Origin: Lama guanicoe
Lineage: Eukaryota
Direction of reading: 5' to 3'
DNA: 64,000 nucleotides
Assembly (NCBI GenBank): GCA_013239625.1
Contig: MU053561.1
Span: 5,129,214 to 5,193,213, forward strand
The position numbers and the translations under genes were made by a program. Positions 1,484-64,000 of the stretch are shown piece by piece; positions within the stretch are counted from its first letter, which is position 1, and each line of letters opens with the position of its first letter. The notes beneath the pieces are model-generated. The model was not told where the DNA came from, searched no databases, and saw nothing but the letters and a program-made list of their open reading frames with translations.

Positions 1484-1605
1484 CTGTGTAAGAACTCCCG
1501 ACTGTATCTGCAGTGGCTGAGCAGCGGGTGCCTGGGGTACAATTGGCACAGCATTATCCACCCTCACAGGGAATCCAGAATGCTTTGTTGTTGCCTGAAG
1601 TCCAG
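1484..1605 (-). CDS. HIPK1: HIPK1 exon 9 ([27 protein letters not shown]...VLTQ)
   Basis: ttttacag|CTGGAC ... ACACAG|gtaaaa; 122 nt. Confidence 0.95.
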
Positions 1606-3399: not shown

Positions 3400-3554
3400 T
3401 AATTTGTTTCGTTTTGTTTGTTTTTGCTTTGTTTTCGGGGGGGGGGTGGTAATTAGGTTTATTTACTCATTTATTTTTTCAGTGGAGATACTGGGGCTTG
3501 AACCCAGGACCACGTGATGCTAAGCACGTGCTCTACCGCTGAGCTATCCCCTCC
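3400..3554 (-). mobile_element. tRNA-Ala-derived SINE (camelid Vic-1-like)
   Basis: Reverse complement reads ggaggggatagctcagcggtagagcacgtgcttagc...gggttcaagccccagtatctcca, with A and B boxes and an AT-rich tail. Confidence 0.85.
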
Positions 3555-5569
3555 TTGCTGAAGTTTTCATTTGTTTTGTTCTTTGTTTTTATTGAACATG
3601 GCCCTTTAAATAGAAAACGAGGAAAGTATGAAAAGAAAAGTAAAACTGAATGGATGAGGGTCTATTCTCCTCTAAGTACAGGCATCTTATAAAAGAGCAG
3701 CCAGTTAAAGAAAAACAGGCAACCTGGAATAGAGGACTGCTGGGCAGAAACCAGCATATGGTTGTGGCTGGCAAATCAACTGACAACTTTTTACAGCTAT
3801 TTGAGTTTAAATACTGAAAGGCAGCACAGAGTAATACTTCAAAATATATAAGCTATGAACCCCACTGCCTGGGTTCAAATCGTGGGTCTACCACTAACTA
3901 GTCACAAAAACAGTGGGCAGATGAGGGAATCGTGATCAATTTTCTCATCTATAAAGTAGGCATAATGGCATTATCCACTACCCAGGGCTGTTTGTGAGGA
4001 TGAATTAACACATGTAAAGGCACTCAGAACATTATCTGGCATGTAGTAATACATATCAGTTTTCATCACTGTCATCACTTTAATTTAAAAACTTCCTTTC
4101 ATTTGGAAAATTTAAAAATTTGCTCTATCTAGCTCTTCTCAGGGATTTAGCCCTCCTAAATAGGAAAAAAAATATCCAGAGCTTATATTTACCTAATTAT
4201 AGCAAAAGGGGTTATACCACTTTCCCCCTCTACGTCTTTGGTTTACATTTTGTTTTGTTTAAGGAACAAAAAAGTTCATCTGCCTCATCTCTTAAATATC
4301 ATCTGAGAAGAAGCAGAAAACTTCAGAGTCCCACATCTAAAAACTTCCAATGAAGCTCACTTTGGGAAAGGTGAAGGGGAGGGAGCGGCTATTTGCTAAG
4401 TTCAGTACAAGAATCACTCAACAAATAACAACCCAAAGTGTAGAATTTACTATTACAAAGTATACGCAGAAAATAATTTGGTAAGTTAGCTAAATTTGCA
4501 TTTACGGGTTTTGAATCTGCTCCTCCGCTCTCCCTGTGGTTTCTCCCTGGTTTACATCGCTATTGCTCTCCTGTCCTCCCGGTAATCTCTCAGTCTCCCC
4601 TAGCCCCTCTTTTCCTTCTGCTTGCTCCGACTCTGTCAGAAACCAAACAAAGAAAAGAGTCACAGTCAGTAAGTAACTGAAGTAAAAAGATAAAAATGCT
4701 AACTACTTCTATGTAAAGTGCTATGAGAAGCCTGAATTCTGGTTTATTCCCACAGGGCACTGACATTGACTTTCTTCTGGGAAAGTCAAGACAGCATCAG
4801 AATATATCCTTAAAACAATTTATTTAACCTTTTAAAAGGCTCTCCAGATCAATAAACACAGAACAACAATGAGAAAATGAGGAAGGATGAGTATGTGAAA
4901 AATTAAAATCTTATTGCAACACAGTGGGTCAGAGCCTCCTTCCTTCTTCAGCTGTTCTGTTTCTCTGTTGATAGGAATTTGCAGCAACAATACAATTCAA
5001 GCTGAAGCAGATTACCTTAATGCCTTTCCCACACAAATACCTCAGCTTGTAGAATTTTTCAGTTCAATAAATAATAATCTTTACTTCTGAATGTAACTTA
5101 AGAGGTTTCTACATTCTTAAACATGATTTTTACATTTTTGAAGAAAATTACCTTTCATTTGGACCATTAATTTTATTTTATAATGGAATGACAGAGGAAA
5201 TAAGATTCAGTATATAGTAGTTCTGTTTACAGTTTTTTCAAGATGTATATACTCTGTATATTGAAAGCTACATGTTTATACTAGATAGAGAATATGGGTA
5301 CAAGGTCTCATTGGGCAAGAAAACTGTTATCAGGTAGTTCAAATAAGGAAATGTTCATTGAACTTCTATGTGTTAGACAGTATCAATAATTAGATAAATA
5401 ACCAATGTAAAAAAGGTGAACCTACTTTGTTAGCTTCAGTTATCTTCATAATCAAAGACTGAGTTTAAACTTGTCAAAGATCAAAACTAAGCAACCAGAT
5501 AATTAGGATCTGCCTAAAAGCAGGCAGGTCTGATACACTACCATATGATATAGGAGTTTCCCCACTTAC

Positions 5570-5795
5570 TTTGAAAAGCAGGTGGACATACTATAAATGT
5601 TTGTTGGAATGGATCTGTCTGAGTGCAAATCTGGGTGGTTCCAGGCTGCAAAGAAACACCCTGCTGGGCAACTCCAGGCACTGGTGCTGCAGATGATGGG
5701 TACAAAGCCGACTGGTAGTTTAGCAGTGAGACATCTGAATTAGCCAGAGAAAGAGTAGCAGCTGCTGCAGTAGAACTGGAAGCTAGAACACTGGC
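5570..5795 (-). CDS. HIPK1: HIPK1 exon 8 ([20 protein letters not shown]...CPPAFQ)
   Basis: tttcag|GCCAGT ... TTTCAAA|gtaagt; 226 nt; ends in phase 1. Confidence 0.95.
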
Positions 5796-6690: not shown

Positions 6691-6853
6691 CTGGTTGTGC
6701 ACTGTATTGAGTTGGTTGCTGAAGCTCATAGTTAGATTTGTGCTTGTATTTGGGGCAACGTGTGTGGTGAAGGGACTCTTGATCTGACTCACTGTATCAT
6801 ACATGTGAACCCTCCGTTTGCAGATCTCCATGTTCTGAAAACAAGACTTGACA
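6691..6853 (-). CDS. HIPK1: HIPK1 exon 7 ([14 protein letters not shown]...TVHNQ)
   Basis: ttttcag|TGTCAAG ... AACCAG|gtaatc; 163 nt. Confidence 0.96.
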
Positions 6854-7165: not shown

Positions 7166-7381
<216 letters not shown>

Positions 7382-49546: not shown

Positions 49547-50628
49547 TCATTGCATACTCTCCTGTCGGTACTCAGGCAAGAGTTTATGGTATTTTTCTGC
49601 TTGCTGGTCAAAGCCCCTGGAAGAGAACCCTGCCTGGAGAAATTTCACTGGAGTCAGAAGGTATTTTAGTGCCAGGCCCCTGACCTCGGGAGCCAGAAGA
49701 GAGGCAGCCTTGCTGCTCTGAGACAGGGAAGAATCCTGGTCCATCCAGGCTCTCTGGTTCCCTGTGGCTGTTGAGTCCTCATTGTCTTCCTTGCCTATCA
49801 AGTAGGGCCCTCCACCGATTTCCTCTCCAGTTTCCAGGGAGAGAAATTCCTCATCTTTAGACCTTAAGTGCACTGAAAACCCCGAAGGGGCAGTCAATAC
49901 AGTCCCCGTCTTCTGGGACTCAGTGGAGGGGACTGCCCCCTCCCATTCTTTGCTGCAGACGTCTGGGAACCACTGTTTCTTGATCTGCAAAGGATGGTGG
50001 GAGCGCTGCTTTGCAAGGTCCCCAGAAAGGTTCTCATTCTTGGTCTTTTTTGAGTCCGGGTCAGTTTGAGAGTGGTCTGCATTTTCCTCAAGTGATTCAA
50101 ACATGACACCCTGGGTTCTCAGTTTCCTTAGCTTCCTTTCTAACAACAACCAGAGACAACTTGGTTTTCTAGAGGAGGAACTCATGTACTGCTGCACAGA
50201 GTCTGGAATTAGGGGCACAGAGAGCCTGGGGCTCAGGCTGTCCTGAAAGTAGTCCCTACAGGGTTGTCGACTGACAATGGGCACCACCTGGCAAGGCTTC
50301 AGTGCCGTGACAAAGGCACGCAGCTCAGAGTAGGAGGAATGGTCAGAGTAAGGGATGATGTGGATATTGGGGTGGGAGCGGTAGATTTTCCGACTGGTGG
50401 GGAGGATAGCAATGGTGGGGTGGGTCTGGTTCCAGCGCAGCATGGCAGAATAGCAGATTTCCATATGGTCCACGGCATGGATGCGGCCAGCCTTCTCCTC
50501 CACCGTGAACACATCTGCCAGGCCCAGCAGCTGCACCAACTCCAGGCGCCGGGGACTCAAAACCACCCAAGTCCGAAACTCCAGGGCCAGCTGCTCCAGC
50601 AGTGACTCTTTCCCCAGGCTATAGAGTC
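49547..50628 (-). CDS. DCLRE1B: DCLRE1B coding exon 4: beta-CASP region, C-terminal tail with TRF2-binding YLLTP motif, stop codon
   Basis: attcag|GACTCTAT (GLYSLGKE); [11 protein letters not shown] motif; [10 protein letters not shown] with YLLTP at 49649-49663; 1082 nt; total CDS 1620 nt = 539 aa. Confidence 0.96.
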
Positions 50629-52606
50629 CTGAATAATGTTAAGGGGTTGAAGGAAAGGAAGAGAAGGAAGAGAATGAAGCTATCGGGGAAACCAAATAAA
50701 TCAACCAAAATTTAACAAAAACACACAAAATTAATGGTTGTTATGGCCTCCCTGATTGTATAGCAGTAAGGAGGTGGCATTTGAGCTGAGCTATACAGAG
50801 GATGGGGTAGAAGGGAGTTTAACATAGAAGATACTCATTCATTCAGCTCAACAAAGAAAAGCATCTATCAAGTGTTAGGCACTGTGAAAACCAACAAAAA
50901 GCCTCAGTCCTCAAGGAGTGTCATCTACAGGGGGACCCAGAAACAATGCATGTTCGAGACATGCACACGGTATTAGGAAGGCACAGAAAAGTAAACACCA
51001 GTTGATGGAGTTACGGAAAGTTTCCTGAAAATGACAACCTAGCCAAGTCCTAAACGATGGGTCCCAGTTAACCTGGCAAAGGAAGGGGATGGTAGAGAAC
51101 ATTTTAAGAGGGGTCATTTCCGTATTACTAAGGTACAAAGAAACTGGTAAGGCACTAGAGAGGTGAGCTAGGGCCATATACTAGGGGGCCTTGTATGTAC
51201 TGCTGGGGAGCTTGGATTTAATTCTGGAAGTGAAAGCGAGCCATTGAAGAGTCTGAAGCAGGAAAATGGCTAGTTCTAATCATAGGATTCAGGTGATCAG
51301 AGCAGGGCTTCAGGACAAAAATGTGGCAGCAGTGTTATTCCACGGCCTGGATGAGAAGATGCTGAGAGCAGAAGTGCCAATTAGAAAACCCAAACAGTAC
51401 TTACCCAGAAAGAAATGGAGAACTGAGTTTGGGTAATGGTTGTGGTGACAGATATAGGAGGTACTATTTAATAGTTGTTCTCAGACCTTTTCTGAAGGTG
51501 TATTTCACCAGACTGTGAACTCCTTCAAAGAACCTTTATTTCTTTTATATCCACCTTATTCCCCATCATGGTTCAAAACCTCACTCTTTGGGCACAAACG
51601 TAGGTCCTTTACGATGAGTGTGTATGAGAGTGTAAACCCTCATATTTTGTTCATCTTTCTATTCCAACTGCCTGTCAGAATATTAAGCACATAGTAAGGG
51701 CTTACTGTATATTTGCAAATTAACCAAGCCCTACTATAGTACCCTCCTACCCAGCTGTGCTTCTCTGGGAAAACGCTGCATTGAAAACTCCAAGAAGAGT
51801 GAGGACCGATAATTCTTCATGAGTAGTCAAGCAATCCTGAGAGGGAATATCTCTCCATCAACTTGGTCGTCACTCTGGAAGGCATAGAGTTTTTTTTCAA
51901 AGCCTTTGTTTAAAACTGTTTTGAAACTCATTTCAGAGTTGGGGCATATCCTTTGAAAATATTCAGCATGATGGCAAATCTTTTTCCTTTTGTGGACTTA
52001 CTACAATTTTGGAAACAATCAAAAAAGTCTTTTGGAATTAAATCTATTATAGTTTTAAAAAGAAAAACTGGTTTTCATAAACTATCACAAAAGACAATTC
52101 CAAGAGTCTCAAAATGTTTTAGACTGTTGTGGAGTCACTAGAACAAGGAGACAGCTGGTTTTTCAATGTATCTAATTTCAAGCACTACACTCATTTGAAT
52201 ATCTACATTCTGATAAATTTCATTCACTGATATAATAAATATTTATTGAATGCCTCTCTCAGGCATTAATCGAGGCATTTGGGATAATCCACAAGTGAAA
52301 CAAAGAGACTGTCTATTACGAAACTTACATTCTAGCAGAGGAAGACAGATAAAAACTAAATACAATAAATATGTAAATTATGGACTATATTGTAAGGTGA
52401 TAAAAATACAATGGTGTCCCTCTCCTACTTGAAATCCTTCAATATGGTTGCACTTAGGGTCAGTTCAAAATGTCTTACAAGCACTTTGGGCCCTCCTACC
52501 TTTCCAGCAGCCTCACCCACTGTGCGCCTCTCACACTGGTTGCTGCTTCTTTGTTCTACAAACACGTAAGACTTCTTCCCACCTCCATCCACGCTCTCAA
52601 GGAATT

Positions 52607-52652
52607 TGTGTGTATGTATGTGTGTGTGTGTGTGCATGCGTGTATGTGTGTG
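52607..52652. repeat. Imperfect (TG)n microsatellite
   Basis: Read directly. Confidence 0.9.
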
Positions 52653-52956
52653 GCAGGGGAAGTGGGACAGACAGTCAACAACAAAGCAACAGCATATTAA
52701 AACATAAATGGGGTACATAGGAAGTTGACGAGTGCTATGAGAAAACGAACAAGTTGAACTGACATAGGGGATCAGGAGTTGGGAATGTGGGAGTAGGGAT
52801 GCGGGCAGATTACAATTTTAAATAAGGTGGTCAGGGTAAGTTTCTTGGAGAAAAGGAGATGTGCACAAAGAAAGATGTGAGAACCTCCCCCCCTCCCAAG
52901 AACCTAGATTCACCAGCTCCAACTGAGTGAGAGAAAAAGGAAAGGAAACCCCTCAC

Positions 52957-53139
52957 CAATTTTTATGTTATGTAGTGGGTACTTTCGAATGAGCTCAATA
53001 ATCTGGCGGGTAGCTTCTTGTTGGGAAGGAAGAACCAGGGCTGGATTGCAATTGGTATTGTCTAGGTATAAGGTGTGGATCTGTTTCCCCTGCCTCAGAG
53101 CTGGCTCCTTTAGCATGGATGGTGTGTACCGAAAATCAC
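52957..53139 (-). CDS. DCLRE1B: DCLRE1B coding exon 3 ([10 protein letters not shown]...LYLDNTNC...NIKI)
   Basis: ttccag|GTGATT ... AAAATTG|gtgagg; 183 nt; TGDFR and YLDNT motifs. Confidence 0.97.
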
Positions 53140-53414
53140 CTGGAAGAAGAATATATGGGGGGCAGAGAGTCAGGCAAAAGTATGGAAGATCAGATTCTCC
53201 CAACTCCAAGAACAGATGAGCATTTGCTTACTGGCTTGTGGGAAAACTGGAGTCTGGCAATGAATTAGTGTAGTAGAGCTTCTTTGTGGAAATGTCTTTA
53301 TCACGCTCCTGTTTTTTCGTTACTCTTTATGAGGTTATACCCTTAAAGGGTGGGAAATCAGTTGAGAAAGGGTCACCGTGCTCATATGGCATGAAGATCT
53401 TCAGACTTCTATTA

Positions 53415-53642
<228 letters not shown>

Positions 53643-53802
53643 CTAAGGAAACAGTTGGGTATCCCATAGAACACAGGCTCCTCTCCCTGATACCTTCCTG
53701 GATCAGAAGCTGTAATGGGGATTCCCAATCCTTCCTTTCTCCTTCCACTCTCTGCCCCACCCTTTGTATAAGTTAAAATTAAGAGTTCAAAAAACAAGTC
53801 TA

Positions 53803-54006
53803 CTCAGCAATTCTCAAACTTTCCTGATCGTAATAACCCTTTTGGAGGGGACATTGGTGAAAAATTTTTTTCCAACCACATTTCCAGGACCTGCACCTGG
53901 AATGTCTACTGAATCAGATGGGGGGTGCAGGAGGTGCTAGAGAATCTGTGTTTCACTCAGTACATTAGGTGGATTCTTATTATGAGTCAGGTTTGGGAAA
54001 CACTGG
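53803..54006. mobile_element. MER5-like hAT MITE; similar copies at about 56083-56267 and 61630-61840
   Basis: cagcaattctcaaactt ... gaatctgtgttt ... gtttgggaaacactg termini. Confidence 0.6.
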
Positions 54007-54265
54007 CCCAGCTTATGTGAAAAGGTAGGAACAGTTTCCCTGGATGAACTGAAAGATCTCCCCAACTTACCGTTGAAACATCCCAAGTAAGCCAGTTGGA
54101 AGACACACTCCTATTCTGTGCTAATGATGCATTTCTGGGTTCAAACTCCCGCATTTGTAAAAACCGGTCCTCCTGGCCCCTACTCTATGACTCCAAGGCT
54201 GTGACAGATCCGAAGTCCCCACCCAGACGCCGGGACCAACTCTCGACGGCCACTCCAGCCCCTCA

Positions 54266-55469
<1,204 letters not shown>

Positions 55470-56849
55470 TAACTCCCACATTGCCGTCCCCACCAGGGCC
55501 CTCTACCCCTGGCCGCTCTGAAAGAGCGAATGAACTTTCATACACGGCAGTTGTCTAATTTGGTTTTTCTGCTCCTTTGGAGTGTCATCTCCCTTGTGGG
55601 ACATGTTTTACTTATTTGACTCAGATGGGTGGTTTCATCCATATCTCGAACTTGTACTGCTGACTTCCAGATCTCTAATATGTTTAGCACAGACCTCCTT
55701 TTTTATCGTGAGACCCACATATCCTACTGCCTTGACATTTCCACCTGCATATTTCTTCAAAGACATGCAAAATAGCACCTGCAGCCTTACCCCCTCCCCA
55801 AACCTGCTCTTCCGCTTGTATTTGCGTTGGTGAATGTCACCACCCAGCTGACCAAGTGTGGGAGTCAGTCCTACTGGCTCCTGATCTCCACTGCTCAGGT
55901 CAGATGGTATGGGTTCATAGTTCTAAATATCCATCCTTTTTTGTTTTTTTTTTTTTTAGTTGGCACTGCTGTTCTGGTTTCCTTACTAAAGCAATTGCAA
56001 TAGCTTAGAAGTAGGTCACCTTGGCTGCTCATTTCAGTCAGAATGATTTCCAACATCTGAATTTGACAATGTAACTCTTGCCTATAGTTGTGAATCACAA
56101 ACTTTAGTGTGCACCAAAGTCCCTTAGGTTGTTTTTGAAGAAAACGTAAATTTTTCATCCAGTGCAGTAATTCTGATTTCAGTAGGGTGGGATGGAAGCA
56201 CGGAATCTGCGTTTTAAACAGACATCCCATCTAATTTCTCTAGGAGATCACAGTTTGAGAAACAGTGATTTACAGCATAGTGTCCAAATTTCTTATAGCA
56301 CCCAAGGAACACCCAGTTAACTACCTGCAAATTCTCAAAAGAATGTACAGTTCCTGCTCATGTCCTTAGGCCTCGTAGCATGTGTTATTACCTCTCTACT
56401 ATACCTGCCTGAGCTCCTGCACATTCAGCTAAAGTATTACTTCCTCTGTGGAAACAATGTATGACCTTCTGGCAGTATGACCCACTGATCCTCACTGCAC
56501 CTTATCTGTTACTTCTGTTATAATACTTATCTATCTTTCTGTAATTAGTGGTGTTCTTGTCTCACTCGTTGGTAGACTTTGAGTTCCTAGAGATCTGAGA
56601 CCTTGCCTTCTTCAAGATTATGACTCCAGGACATACCTGTGGAATGTACAAGCTGAATTTCACTGGAACGTACTAGGAATTCAATAAGTATTTGTTGAAT
56701 GACTAGAAGAACGTTTATTGCAGGCCCATGGTATGAGGTATTGTGTGGTAGGACAGGCAAGGTAGACTTGGTTGCTTCCCTTCAAGAGATCACAATCTAG
56801 TTGGATATCCAGGACACATATAAGTAAAATACTTTCTGTTGTTGGTTAG

Positions 56850-57119
<270 letters not shown>

Positions 57120-57464
57120 TGAGCACACCTTCCCTGCCAGTATCTCGTGGCTGATGAGTTCATGTGGCCATGGGGCAGGTTTTTAATGATGACAATTTAT
57201 TTGAGCTTCATAATACTGGGGGAAACACTATTATAACCTGCACTTATGTTTTTGGCCATTGCTTTGGTTTAAAAAACAATATATATGATTTCATTAAGGG
57301 ATTTTTCTATCCTTACTATAGGTGAAATAATTAAAGATTTCTAAATATGTATGTTATTATTATTATTATAAAGTTTTCTAAATATATATATTATTTCACT
57401 TATTTATTTACTGCTGCCTGTGCAGCATTATTCTACATGAAAAGTCCAGTGAGCTCCTTTTTAA

Positions 57465-57670
57465 AAAAATTATATTTTTTATTGACGTGTAGTTGATTTA
57501 CAATGTTAGTTTCAGGTGTACAGCAAAACAATCAGTTATACATATACACACATACATAAATTTTTTCAGATTCTTTTCCATTATAAGTTATTACAAGAAG
57601 TTGAAAAAATTGAATATAATTCCCTGTGCTATACAGTTGGTTTTTATTGTCTATCTATTTTGTATAAAGT
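57465..57670 (-). mobile_element. LINE-1 3' end fragment in AP4B1 intron 2
   Basis: tagttgatttacaatgttagtttcaggtgtacagc...ttccctgtgctatacagt is the reverse complement of the same L1 3' end. Confidence 0.75.
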
Positions 57671-57817
57671 GAGGCTATTTAAGTTTGGCAGCAGCTTTCT
57701 CCAGTTTGTTGGAGAAGAATCCGACGGATGCATATTCAAGCATCACTAAACCCCCTGTTAAATGGATCAGGGCTAAATTATGTCAGAACTAGTATTTCAG
57801 GATCTGGCTGACTCTAG

Positions 57818-57985
<168 letters not shown>

Positions 57986-58331
57986 TGATCAATATTTAAT
58001 TGTGTTTCCAGTTTTATGTTTGTAAAAGATTATGTAGCTTTGGTAGAAAATAATACCATGCCTCTATTTCTGTATGTCTCTTTTAAGAAGGATGCAGGGC
58101 TTGGTATTTTCTGTGATTAGAGAAGTCCTTTCTTTGGGGGCACAGGTGAGAACCTTTGTAATAGTAACTTAGAAAAGTCTGGAAATGGCAACTTTTTTTG
58201 CCTTGCACTTTGTTATTGCCATTATTATTTTTGTACCAGAGAAGTTCAGCTTCGTCTACTTAGAGCTGTGACTGGCTCTATCCCTGTGACTGAAGCCTTT
58301 CTTTATCTGAGATCTTTGTTCTCTTTTATAG

Positions 58332-58479
58332 ATGGTGCCCTGGTAAATGAATTATATAGTTTGCTACGTGACCAGGATCCAATTGTGGTTGTAAACTGCT
58401 TGAGGTCTCTGGAGGAAATTCTGAAACAGGAAGGAGGTGTTGTCATCAATAGGCCCATCGCCCACCATCTCTTAAATCG
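58332..58479 (+). CDS. AP4B1: AP4B1 coding exon 4 ([24 protein letters not shown]...HLLN)
   Basis: tttatag|ATGGTG ... AATCG|gtttgg; 148 nt. Confidence 0.95.
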
Positions 58480-58941
58480 GTTTGGATGCCTCTGTGCTCT
58501 TTGTGTCGTGATCAGATCTGCATCCCAGTGGGATGCTGTTGATGTGTTGAATTAAGGAGAGGTCTTCAACAAGTACTGTAGAGTAGTAAAGAAAGTTAAC
58601 CATAACTATTAATTTCCTCATATTTCATTGAGAGAATTTTTTGTTTTCATTTCATCTGGTGATACAGAGAGATGGCAGAAACATCCTTTGGGGATAGACT
58701 CTGTCCTCTGCAATCATTATGTCCCCCAAACTAAGCCATTCATGCTGCTTTAAAATGTAGAGAATCTGGATCTAGGGTAGAGTGATCATGTCTTTGGCCT
58801 TAGACGAGTGTGCATTTGTACTATAAACTCATCCTAGAATTTAAAGCCTTATTATGTGTACACTTTAAGTAGTACATAAAAAGAATAATTTGACTATTGC
58901 TCAACCTATTTTGAAGAATTCTTGTTATGAAGAACAGGTGA

Positions 58942-59667
<726 letters not shown>

Positions 59668-60476
59668 TGAACATTGTTTTTGGTCAACCCTGGTGTTGCC
59701 ATATCTTCTAGGATATAGAATACAGGTAACTCAAACGATGACACACACAATTTATATTGCCTTTTGTTGCCTATTATCCAAAATGTCTTCCTGTGTATCA
59801 TTTTACCAGTCTTGTGAGGCAATCAAGAGAAGCAGGTAAGTGTTGTTAACTTCATTTTAAAGATGAAGAAACTTAGGCACAAAAAGTTTATTAAATTGCC
59901 CAAAGGTCATACAGTTCTTGACCTGGGCCTGAAGCCAAGCTTTCCTGACTCAAAGTCCTGTGGCAGTTCACCAGCAGTTTATTGAACTTCACTGGACTAT
60001 GTATTGTGCTGAGTAGGCCACACAGAGTCACACCTAAGCTTACAGACTTTTTCATACCACTCTGTCTGGATTCAGAAGGCTAGAGTGAGTCACACAGTGA
60101 AAGCAGCTGGGGAGCTAAGTCCTGGGGGGCTTCAGGTGGAGGAGGAGAAAGAACCCTCATATGTGGAATAAAGTATGGTTACTTTTAGGGGCAGGGAAGA
60201 GGGAACAAAGACGGGAGTAGAAAGCCTGCAGTCAGGAGAGTGTTCCTAGCAGGAATACCCCCGTGTGGGTGTGCTGCAGCACACTGGCTGCCACGTGAAT
60301 ACCTTTGCTGCTGAAAGTTTTCAGCCTTGTTCAGTGGAAATTCCTTTTTACCACAGTTCCCTTTATATGGCAAACTTAGATTCTTATTTCATCCACCACG
60401 GGGGGAGTTTTTTAAAGGTATTTCTGGTCCCCTTTGTCTTTGCCTAGTGGAAAATTATCTTAGAATAAGGTACTAA

Positions 60477-60647
<171 letters not shown>

Positions 60648-60865
60648 TGACCCATAGTAGTTGCCCCCAATATATCTGTTGTTGAATAATAGGGAGGTTT
60701 AAATCTGTTTCCATCAGAGAAGCATAACAGGGTAGAGTCTTCAGGTTGCCATGAGTCAACAAGGCTGTTCTATAGATGGTGAAGAATGCTAGGATGACGT
60801 GGCTTGTTATTTTCCCACCTTTACCCCTCTTTTTGCTTTATGGCAGCATACTGTAAGCAGAGGCT

Positions 60866-61020
60866 TTGGGGGCTGAGACTAGGGTGAGGCAAGCAAGGTG
60901 CCTAGGATGCAGGCATTTAAAGAGGCACTCATTCTCAGGTTTGTGCAAGTGCTAGCTCTGTGCGTCTTCTTAAATTTCACACCCTGGCACCTTGCTTGCT
61001 TCACTGTAACCCCAGCTCTG
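60866..61020. mobile_element. Palindromic hAT MITE (MER96-like, tentative)
   Basis: Inverted arms GCAAGCAAGGTGCC (60889-60902) and GGCACCTTGCTTGC (60986-60999). Confidence 0.6.
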
Positions 61021-61312
61021 GTCACTCCATTGATACTGTCTTCAGAGCATCACTCAGCAACAGCACTCCACCACATTTGAACACAGCTTTCTGTTTTGCC
61101 TAGCGCTTTCGCAGACATTAACTCAGTTATCCTCATGGCCATCTGATAAGAGTGACATTCATTGAAGAAATTGTTGCCCGTGTCAGACATTTCTCAGATA
61201 ATCATTGACCTCCCCCTCCAACACTCATTTTACAGAAATTCACCCAGCAGTCTAGTCTGAATATATAACAAGATTCTAATCCTGTGCTCTTGTATCCTGA
61301 GCTGTGTTGCAG

Positions 61313-61416
61313 TGGTGGTGCAGACTTTCCGAGACCTGGTTTGGCTGTGTCCCCAGTGTACGGAAGCCGTGTGTCAGGCCCTGCCCGGCTGTGAGGAGCA
61401 CATTCAGGACAGCGAG
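61313..61416 (+). CDS. AP4B1: AP4B1 coding exon 7 ([15 protein letters not shown]...IQDSE)
   Basis: ttgcag|TGGTG ... GAG|gtagac; 104 nt. Confidence 0.95.
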
Positions 61417-62163
61417 GTAGACTGTAGCTCGCCTTTCCTTCCAGGCACAGGGGGATGCTCGGGACCCTGCTCTGGGAAATGGAATCTAATCATTCTTTTC
61501 TACCCAGTGTCTGAAGTGGAAATTCTCAGAATTGACTGCCACCTCAGATTCTCTTTGGGGTGTAGAAAAGGTATAAATGATAAAAATATTAGGATTTATC
61601 TGTGGTTTTATTACACATATTTTGATACCATTGTTCTCATGAACAGTTTTGAGTCAGAGACTCAGACCAGAGAGTTTTCAGCTGGAATGAAAATCAGAAT
61701 AATTTGTGGAATTTTTGCAAATATTTGGGCTTTACCCCAGGTCTGCTCAAATATTCAGGAGTGGTAGACCTAGACACATAGAATTTTAAGAAGCTTCACA
61801 GGTGACTTTGATGTGCATTCTAGGTTAACCACCACTTTGATGAAGTAACTTCGGGAAATCTTCCAGTAGCTTCCACTGAAGCATTAAACTCCAAATTGGG
61901 GCAGAGGTCCCAAAGCTGAGGAAACCTTACTGTTTAAGCAATCTAGGCCATGAGAGTCTTGAGTCTCCTTTTGTGTGCTAGAATTTCATTCCTCTTTCTT
62001 ACAGAGAGTGTAGTAGTGGGAGATCAATAAATGCAAGTTGAAGTAAATACAGTATTATACCTTTTCTGCTGACAGTAGGGGAAAAGCAAAATCTGCAGTG
62101 GTCTACTGTGGCCTGTGTTTTGGACAAATGTTGAGCCCCTGTTCTCACTCCCTTATTCCTCAG

Positions 62164-62371
62164 GGGAAGCAGGCGCTGATTTGGCTCCTGGGCGTCCATG
62201 GGGAACGAATTCCCAATGCTCCTTATGTGTTGGAGGACTTTGTAGAGAATGTGAAGTCAGAGACGTTTCCAGCTGTTAAGATGGAGCTGCTCACGGCACT
62301 GCTGCGTCTTTTCCTCTCCCGACCGGCCGAGTGCCAGGACACGCTGGGCCGTTTGCTGCATTACTGCATAG
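62164..62371 (+). CDS. AP4B1: AP4B1 coding exon 8 ([14 protein letters not shown]...LLHYCI)
   Basis: cctcag|GGGAAG ... ATAG|gtaggc; 208 nt. Confidence 0.96.
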
Positions 62372-62576
62372 GTAGGCTCCCCGGGAGGCAATGGTACCTG
62401 CCGTGACTGGCAGTAAGGTCTCACGGCTCTCATGTCTGGGACCCAAGAAGAAAATGTCACCGTTTTTTAGGGTTTCCTCCCTCCTTCATTTTTCTCTCCT
62501 ATTTTGGTTGGCATAGGGGTAGAAATAGTGTGTTGGGTTTTGTTTTTAATTAACTCAGTCTGTTGTTTTCCCTCAG

Positions 62577-62855
62577 AGGAAGAAAAGGATATGGCTGTAC
62601 GGGACCGAGGTCTCTTCTATTATCGCCTCCTCTTAGCTGGTGTTGATGAAGTGAAGCGGATCCTGTGCAGCCCTAAGTCTGACCCTTCTCTTGGACTTTT
62701 GGCGGATCAGGCAGAAAGACCTGTGAACAGCTGGGCCTCCGACTTCAACACACTGGTGCCAGTATATGGCAAAGCCCGCTGGGCAACCATCTCCAAGTGC
62801 CGAGGGGTAGAGCGTCATGGCCCAGAGCTTCCTAATGCATCCTGTGCCACATCAG
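62577..62855 (+). CDS. AP4B1: AP4B1 coding exon 9 ([18 protein letters not shown]...CATS)
   Basis: cctcag|AGGAAG ... TCAG|gtaaaa; 279 nt; [12 protein letters not shown] and FNTL adaptin motifs. Confidence 0.96.
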
Positions 62856-63118
62856 GTAAAAACTGTCTTTTCTTTGGACCTTGTCAGAAAACTCTTTATC
62901 TCTTGCAATGACTGGTAGAGAGTAGAGGACACTCTCTAAGTCTCAGCCTGTTGCCTGAATTTGAAATCTTTGTGAATAAGAAAGTAGTTCATCATTGGTT
63001 ATTTAAGCCATTTATCCACAGATAAGAGTCACATTATGTACGTTTGGACATCTAGATTTGACAATGTAGTTCCTGTCGATTAAGAACATCTCTTACACAA
63101 ACTTTTCAACTCTTTTAG

Positions 63119-63546
63119 GACCCCTGGTTCCTGCAGAGAACAAGGAGCGGGTACAAGATCTCCCCGATTCCGGAGCCCTCATGCTAGTCCCCAATCGTCA
63201 GCTAACTGCTGAGTGTTTTGAGAAAACTTGGCTTAGCCTCAAAGTTGCTCATCAGCAAGTGTTCCCGTGGCAGGGAGTGGTCCATCCTGACACCCTCCAG
63301 ATGGCCCTGCAAGTGGTGAACATCCAGACCATCGCCATGAGCAGGGCTGGGGCGCAGCCCTGGAAAGCCTTCCTCAGTGCTCAGGACGATACTGGCTGTC
63401 TGTTCCTAACAGAACTGCTGTTGGAGCCCGAGAACTTAGAAATGCAGGTCTCTGTGAAACAAAGCAAGGCGAGGACAGAGACACTGCACAGTTTTATTTC
63501 TGTATTAGAAACTGTGATTGGAACAATTGGAGACTTAAAGTCCTAA
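63119..63546 (+). CDS. AP4B1: AP4B1 coding exon 10: C-terminal ear/appendage domain and stop codon
   Basis: ttttag|GACCC ... AAGTCC TAA; 428 nt; total CDS 2217 nt = 738 aa. Confidence 0.96.
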
Positions 63547-64000
63547 CGACTTCTTGCCTGTCCTGAGTGAGATGAATAGCTGTCAGAGTTCCTTAGTTTT
63601 TCTCACTACAGCTGCTTGTAAGTCCAGATAATGTCAAATGCAAAGGAGAAGAGGAATCTAGGGATTAAGATTCTTATGCTTTTGTCCAAAGACCATTGAC
63701 ATATTCCTCTCATACTTATTGCTGAATGACCCCATTTTTCCAGGTGATATTGAAAAGGTTAATGTTGGTAAGCGGGTGGGAATGCGGTGATAGGATTTGG
63801 CTTTTTTTCTAATCAGTTTAAGGGGTTATTTTACTACTTAAAGATGCCTGAAGTCTCTGGACTGATGACGTCATCATTTTTGGGAGGCATCTTTTCTCCC
63901 CTGGATTACTGCAGTAAATTCCTTACTGTTCTCATGTTTCTAATCATGCTTTTTAGGCCAGAGATCAAAGTCCTCCGTGTGGCATCTAAAGTGCCTCTTC

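Follow-up and report, generated by a model that had tools for sequence, protein, structure and literature searches.

Does intron 8 of the guanaco HIPK1 gene contain an additional exon and, if so, would that exon end a shortened kinase or divert the message to decay? A first-pass annotation of this locus had favoured a last exon encoding a new acidic tail, and we here weigh that proposal against the other ways in which the segment might be used.

Exon layout of HIPK1 and a splice acceptor in intron 8

HIPK1 occupies the minus strand of the 64-kb stretch of DNA analysed here (the window), with a GC-rich start near 34.5 kb. Coding exons 2-8 lie at 25084-24009, 15873-15750, 9524-9405, 8613-8527, 7351-7167, 6853-6691 and 5795-5570 (all minus strand) and total 1,981 nt, or 660 codons and one base; the encoded residues 1-660, which include the kinase domain (residues 190-518), are identical to the human HIPK1 record P0148 at 658 of 660 positions. 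Codon 660 is the last complete codon of exon 8 (5570..5795, 226 nt), which closes in phase 1, and an intron of 3,964 nt separates this exon from exon 9 (1484..1605, minus strand). Elsewhere in the gene, exon 2 ends with a GC donor, CAG/GCAAGT (24009-24003, minus strand; the slash marks the splice site throughout), giving a GC-AG intron, and the yak and hamster gene models are mis-spliced at this donor. The acceptor of exon 6 is an unusual AAG (7351-7360, minus strand), and exon 7 holds an internal donor at 6792 (minus strand), used by the yak gene model, through which 102 nt (34 aa) are lost in frame. In the part covered of a mouse testis table, the sole Hipk1 cluster has donors 102 nt apart (PMC11791180), a spacing that agrees with the internal donor just described in exon 7 and not with the intron 8 exon considered below. 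Intron 8 itself carries a tRNA-like element with A-rich flanks (3482-3554, minus strand; ARAGORN; 42 bits in Rfam), most likely a tRNA-derived SINE in sense orientation; an Rfam search of the intron gave no other match. Farther along the window, two ORFs within 49547-63566, which we take to resemble DCLRE1B (minus strand) and AP4B1 (plus strand), stand head to head, with GC-rich sequence near 54.6 kb between them.

Within intron 8, a TACTGAC branch point (4665..4671, minus strand, as are all features of the intron described from here on), whose A lies 34 nt 5′ of the exon, precedes a pyrimidine tract and CAG acceptor (4633..4664; AG at 4634-4633, with an AG-free zone of 42 nt). These lead into a purine-rich, GGAG-rich and CpG-retaining exon body of 127 nt (4506..4632), across which no tandem or notable repeat was seen. 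The branch point, tract, CAG and exon start at 4632, as well as a TAA at 4504-4502 and an AGTAAA at 4451-4446, are all located where the first-pass annotation had placed them. Its reading frame was likewise borne out, in that exon 8 joined at 4632 stays in frame and would yield 660 + 43 = 703 aa; the 43-codon tail has 10 D/E and 4 K/R, and the tail peptide had no Pfam family and no Atlas match.

Introns 2-8 of HIPK1, 21,498 nt in all, hold 1,325 AG dinucleotides, which we scanned for comparable acceptors; with thresholds of our own, fixed once the candidate was known, 59 of them combined YAG, a pyrimidine tract and an AG-free zone. A yTnAy branch point was also present at 32 of these 59 and a CTRAY branch point at seven; two of the 32 were followed in addition by at least 40 open codons in phase, and only the acceptor at 4633 combined such a frame with a CTRAY branch point. 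Indeed, its branch-point match is the strongest among the HIPK1 acceptors scored, including the seven annotated ones, and the exon body is the top 128-nt stretch for purine content within introns 2-8. The purine-rich, T-poor composition stops at about 4516-4495, around a donor at 4505, and four to five CpGs are retained in the exon against 0.6 expected. The other acceptor-like site with at least 40 open codons in phase (21478, minus strand) lies in repeat-like sequence of intron 2, with a weak branch point and without purine richness. A competing acceptor 44 nt 5′ of the exon (pyrimidine tract and CAG, 4677..4696) had been missed earlier; splicing to it would bring a stop after three codons, and its CAG is compatible with the related sequences P0003 and P0004 and appears altered in P0249.

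The exon body is strongly enriched for GGAG (8 occurrences against 0.31 expected) and GGAGA (4 against 0.10), and GGAG-type motifs bind SRSF1/SRSF2. The first-pass annotation had regarded the exon as a typical Tra2/SR-protein target, and the Tra2 part of that idea finds no support: AGAA occurs twice against 0.86 expected and GAA three times against 2.5, and there is no array of four AGAA. A useful comparison is HIPK3-T, an exon of the paralogue HIPK3 that presumably lies after exon 3 of that gene and would on this account not be homologous to the intron 8 exon. According to the portion of PMC3185414 considered, HIPK3-T is testis-specific; like the exon in intron 8, it is purine-rich and has a weak donor that faces a competing one downstream. 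It requires four AGAA enhancers for Tra2-beta, whereas the intron 8 exon has two AGAA and eight GGAG, and Tra2 control is therefore not indicated here (PMC3185414).

Conservation in other mammals and the level of selection

A search with the 42-residue exon peptide matched 8 proteins among 14 candidates, representatives of 50% clusters gave 6 matches (4 of them new), and 3 cluster members brought the total to 15 sequences, comprising four GenBank gene models and 11 assembly ORFs. Identities in the gene models were 42/42 in Camelus ferus, 41/42 in yak, 38/42 in Chinese hamster and 37/42 in reed vole; the camel model may be close kin of the source of the window. No primate, marsupial or bird sequence was identified among the 15, and a pattern search for orthologous DNA in viral and metagenome contigs gave 26 and 163 matches, none of them confirmed. 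The neutral distance between camel and rodents is about 0.5. When neutral drift was simulated at distances of 0.3-0.6, an identity of 37/42 was reached in 0 of 20,000 runs at each distance, and the observed peptide identity equates to a distance near 0.05. Judged by this protein-level comparison, the exon is conserved beyond neutral expectation. In the assembly ORFs some 140 nt of intron 5′ of the exon (4633-4770) can also be aligned, with 25-28 of 36 residues identical in an arbitrary frame, and this stretch possibly holds splicing control elements.

The four gene models that hold the exon (EPY74519.1, MXQ79562.1, hamster ERE91072.1 and KAM7318155.1) all enter it at the 4633 acceptor directly after exon 8, all leave it at the 4505 donor, and all run on as though it were an internal exon. 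The open frame is kept in all four. ERE91072.1 goes on into exon 9 in a shifted frame, in which 8 of 12 residues are identical to the corresponding guanaco frame. The models are probably predictions, since their downstream joins are implausible and two of them skip several exons, and we therefore read them as showing signals rather than transcripts. Among 217 stored proteins that contain the end of exon 8, 209 continue to exon 9 and four to the intron 8 exon; none of these four is a RefSeq model, and no RefSeq model among those listed, a sample in the case of large clusters, carries the exon. Taken together with the splice signals, these comparisons make it very likely that the exon is real and conserved.

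Does selection act on the peptide or on the RNA? In seven relatives (P0002, P0004, P0005, P0006, P0007, P0248 and P0249; the other eight were identical, shifted, truncated, diverged or from the same cluster), 23 distinct substitutions have a mean BLOSUM62 score of -0.43; single-base changes drawn at random average -0.42 (P 0.54, or 0.26 when CpG is weighted). Changes at either terminal residue were lost from the local alignment, three of the 23 substitutions need two base changes, and the test is a weak one because even radical changes would be tolerated in a disordered tail. The neighbouring exons 7 and 8 are fully identical to hamster, vole and human (54/54 and 75/75 residues), and for exon 8 the same holds in yak. 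The 11 assembly ORFs, in which assembly errors are possible and several of which share a cluster and so are not all independent, point the same way. The frame shifts inside the exon in P0003, P0250 and P0254, P0005 reads through the stop and P0008 ends three residues early, while six of the 11, including one with a shifted frame, share a single end position. All 11 begin in the upstream intron and for this reason attest DNA or unspliced RNA only. With substitutions that resemble random change and an ending that is shifted or lost in 5 of 11 ORFs, selection looks to be at the nucleotide level. This pattern suits a constraint on the RNA sequence rather than on the peptide, although a disordered coding tail could look alike.

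A donor at the stop codon and the fate of the message

The 3′ end of the exon carries a feature that the earlier reading had overlooked, namely that its stop codon overlaps a splice donor. The donor, CCC/GTAAAT (4500..4508; GT at 4505-4504, with TAA at 4504-4502 as the in-frame stop), is weak, matching the U1 consensus at 6 of 9 positions, where the annotated HIPK1 donors score 5-8. Its use would create a 127-nt cassette and shift the frame of exon 9, adding 59 new residues for a product of 719 aa in total, with a stop at about 1556-1554 that precedes the exon 9/10 junction by 70 nt. Since this distance exceeds the 50 nt of the rule given in the part of PMC13187750 considered, the cassette message is predicted to undergo nonsense-mediated decay. 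An acceptor and a (weak) donor flanking the segment, and a stop that precedes a later junction by more than 50 nt, are what the sequence offers for a poison cassette. A second donor, AAA/GTGAGC (4355..4363), which had also been missed, is a candidate for an alternative exon end; a coding cassette that keeps the frame was rejected, no donor near the end of the exon lying at a multiple of three.

For a last exon, an acceptor, an in-frame stop, a poly(A) signal and a downstream element are all present at the level of motifs. A predicted variant poly(A) signal, AGTAAA (4446..4451), lies 50 nt 3′ of the stop and is followed by a GU-rich element (4406..4435, 25 of 30 positions G/T); all of these poly(A) motifs (4451-4406) are downstream of the 4505 donor. 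The hexamer by itself says little because any of four such hexamers occurs by chance in 885 of 2,049 intronic 150-nt windows (43%). The GU-rich element, by contrast, ranks first among the stretches downstream of 78 intronic hexamers, and the 703-aa terminal form therefore stays a plausible second outcome.

We give an about even chance to the explanation that we nevertheless place at the head, that the intron 8 segment is a 127-nt poison cassette which, by shifting exon 9, would direct the message into nonsense-mediated decay and so tune HIPK1 output. Splicing from exon 8 to exon 9 would be the default route. The GGAG-rich enhancers, with SR-type proteins, may aid the weak 4505 donor and thereby make inclusion regulated; an included cassette would lead to the 719-codon frame and to predicted decay. 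Where the 4505 donor is skipped, the same GTAA would provide the stop codon, the transcript could finish at the AGTAAA/GU element, and the result would be a 703-aa kinase from a message that escapes decay. A broader version, in which a three-way switch operates throughout placental mammals, one GTAA serving as donor and stop and the outcome (decayed message or stable 703-aa kinase) regulated by tissue, for instance in spermatids, appears unlikely to us, and the same low expectation applies to its further proposal that the 703-aa kinase is freed from the SUMO-binding, speckle-targeting and autoinhibitory half of the protein.

That the exon serves chiefly as an alternative last exon, with cleavage near 4430-4415 and a stable, acidic-tailed kinase of 703 aa as its product, is possible though doubtful. 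Its frame, stop and length are correct, the frame is open in all four gene models, which would suit a coding tail, 6 of 11 assembly ORFs have a common end position, and P0005 reads I-V-N at the hexamer, which is compatible with its conservation; the leading rank of the GU-rich element belongs on the same side. Paralogue and mouse data can be added, in that a short form of HIPK2, HIPK2-S, is functional (PMC7072727, as far as that paper is covered), and the covered part of PMC11541570 refers to a mouse Hipk1 intronic-end isoform in the UCSC annotation, given without coordinates that would place it here. The weakness of the donor and the open frame also tell against a decay cassette. Set against this are the absence of a protein-level filter on the substitutions, the 5 of 11 assembly ORFs in which the frame has moved or the stop has gone, a variant hexamer of a kind common by chance, and the finding that the 43-aa tail does not follow the kinase as the C-terminus of any of 247 stored proteins, a weak point in that large clusters hide short members. 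A cassette is likelier than a last exon because the stop doubles as a donor, all four gene models exit there, no protein-level filter is apparent and the presumed 719 aa of the short mouse form Myak-S equal the length of the cassette product, not 703. A real, conserved exon with the acceptor and frame of the original proposal is supported, and the view of it as chiefly a last exon with a selected acidic tail is the less likely one.

Might the 719-aa product itself be a working protein, similar to Myak-S and made, for example, in spermatids? Decay is thought to be weak in these cells, the product would retain the kinase domain, and the shifted exon 9 frame is found in the hamster model. Hipk1 is moreover high in spermatids, according to the covered parts of PMC5105947 and PMC10952393. 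Even so, the stop lies 70 nt before the junction, the substitutions look unselected, and conservation of the main frame carries the shifted one along in any case; we regard a working 719-aa protein as improbable. We think it very improbable that the segment is a conserved non-exonic element, whether a transcription enhancer, a decoy exon or a protein-binding site, that only resembles an exon. The alignable upstream intron and the retained CpGs would suit such an element, as would the absence of the exon from the catalogues searched, but the conserved block is bracketed by branch point, tract, acceptor, phase and donor, none of which an enhancer needs. Hardly to be expected, finally, is a 272-nt poison cassette formed through the 4360 donor, with its stop inside the exon and 141 nt before the junction. 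That donor is similar to exon 8's own, and HIPK3-T likewise has a competing downstream donor (PMC3185414, in the part considered); however, there is no sign that the 4360 donor is conserved, the gene models use 4505, and the composition shifts at about 4505.

Known short forms and consequences for HIPK1

Myak-S is a short mouse Hipk1 cDNA form, presumably of 719 aa, a figure noted before the length of the cassette product was computed, and is taken to be a short kinase isoform rather than a decay target. The guanaco cassette product has the same length, the two being compared by length only, and it is likely that the intron 8 cassette is the exon of Myak-S, so that the exon has probably already been cloned in mouse. 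Against this length, Myak-S was rejected as a read-through of intron 8 (670 aa) or intron 9 (707 aa) and as the terminal form (703 aa). A literature search on Myak-S and its synonyms gave no match, and the listed members of the clusters, no more than 15 each out of up to 725, include no protein of 703 or 719 aa.

A poison exon with a downstream poly(A) site is a known kind of mechanism. The covered part of PMC13187750 describes 451 human events with this arrangement, and its class shares the three outcomes considered here, namely skipping, a decay target, and an extended terminal exon at a downstream poly(A) site. That class requires a stop inside the cassette and excludes frameshifts, whereas the 127-nt guanaco form would poison by frameshift; on the portion of the paper considered, the exon works like the escape class but falls outside its strict definition. 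HIPK1 is not among the 475 human decay-escape rows of the supplement to PMC13187750 nor among the 395 rows of human conserved cryptic exons in PMC11632617. Similarly, it is not listed in the supplements of PMC5928244 (four files) and PMC4724118 (one small file) or in the supplement files of PMC8559711 other than file 1. In the HIPK1 isoform, polyadenylation and poison-exon literature searched, a body in which subscription papers are mostly outside coverage, the exon is undescribed as a conserved decay/escape switch. The mouse intronic-end isoform has a ratio of 0.06, with a rise from 0.002 to 0.128 on Torin (PMC11541570, covered part). HIPK2-S, as presented in the covered part of PMC7072727, arises by retention of intron 13, still has the kinase and no longer localises to speckles; it lacks only two exons, whereas a short HIPK1 would lose nearly half of the protein.

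The first-pass annotation had also foreseen the loss of C-terminal regions, and this was right for the 703-aa and 719-aa products alike. As far as sequence can tell, the kinase domain would be present in both, and both would lack the stretch around residue 903, which we take to be the SUMO-interaction motif. The terminal form, if real, would thus be a kinase without that motif. Punctate nuclear localisation of HIPK2 depends on its SUMO-interaction motif, which is common to HIPK1 (PMC4353451, in the part considered). If the intron 8 exon is indeed the exon of Myak-S, the "short kinase" would have to be re-read as a likely decay substrate. Because the mechanism itself is common, the gain is specific to this gene: HIPK1 is a developmental and stress kinase, and a conserved decay exon, if confirmed, would mean control of HIPK1 dosage and an antisense handle on HIPK1 level.
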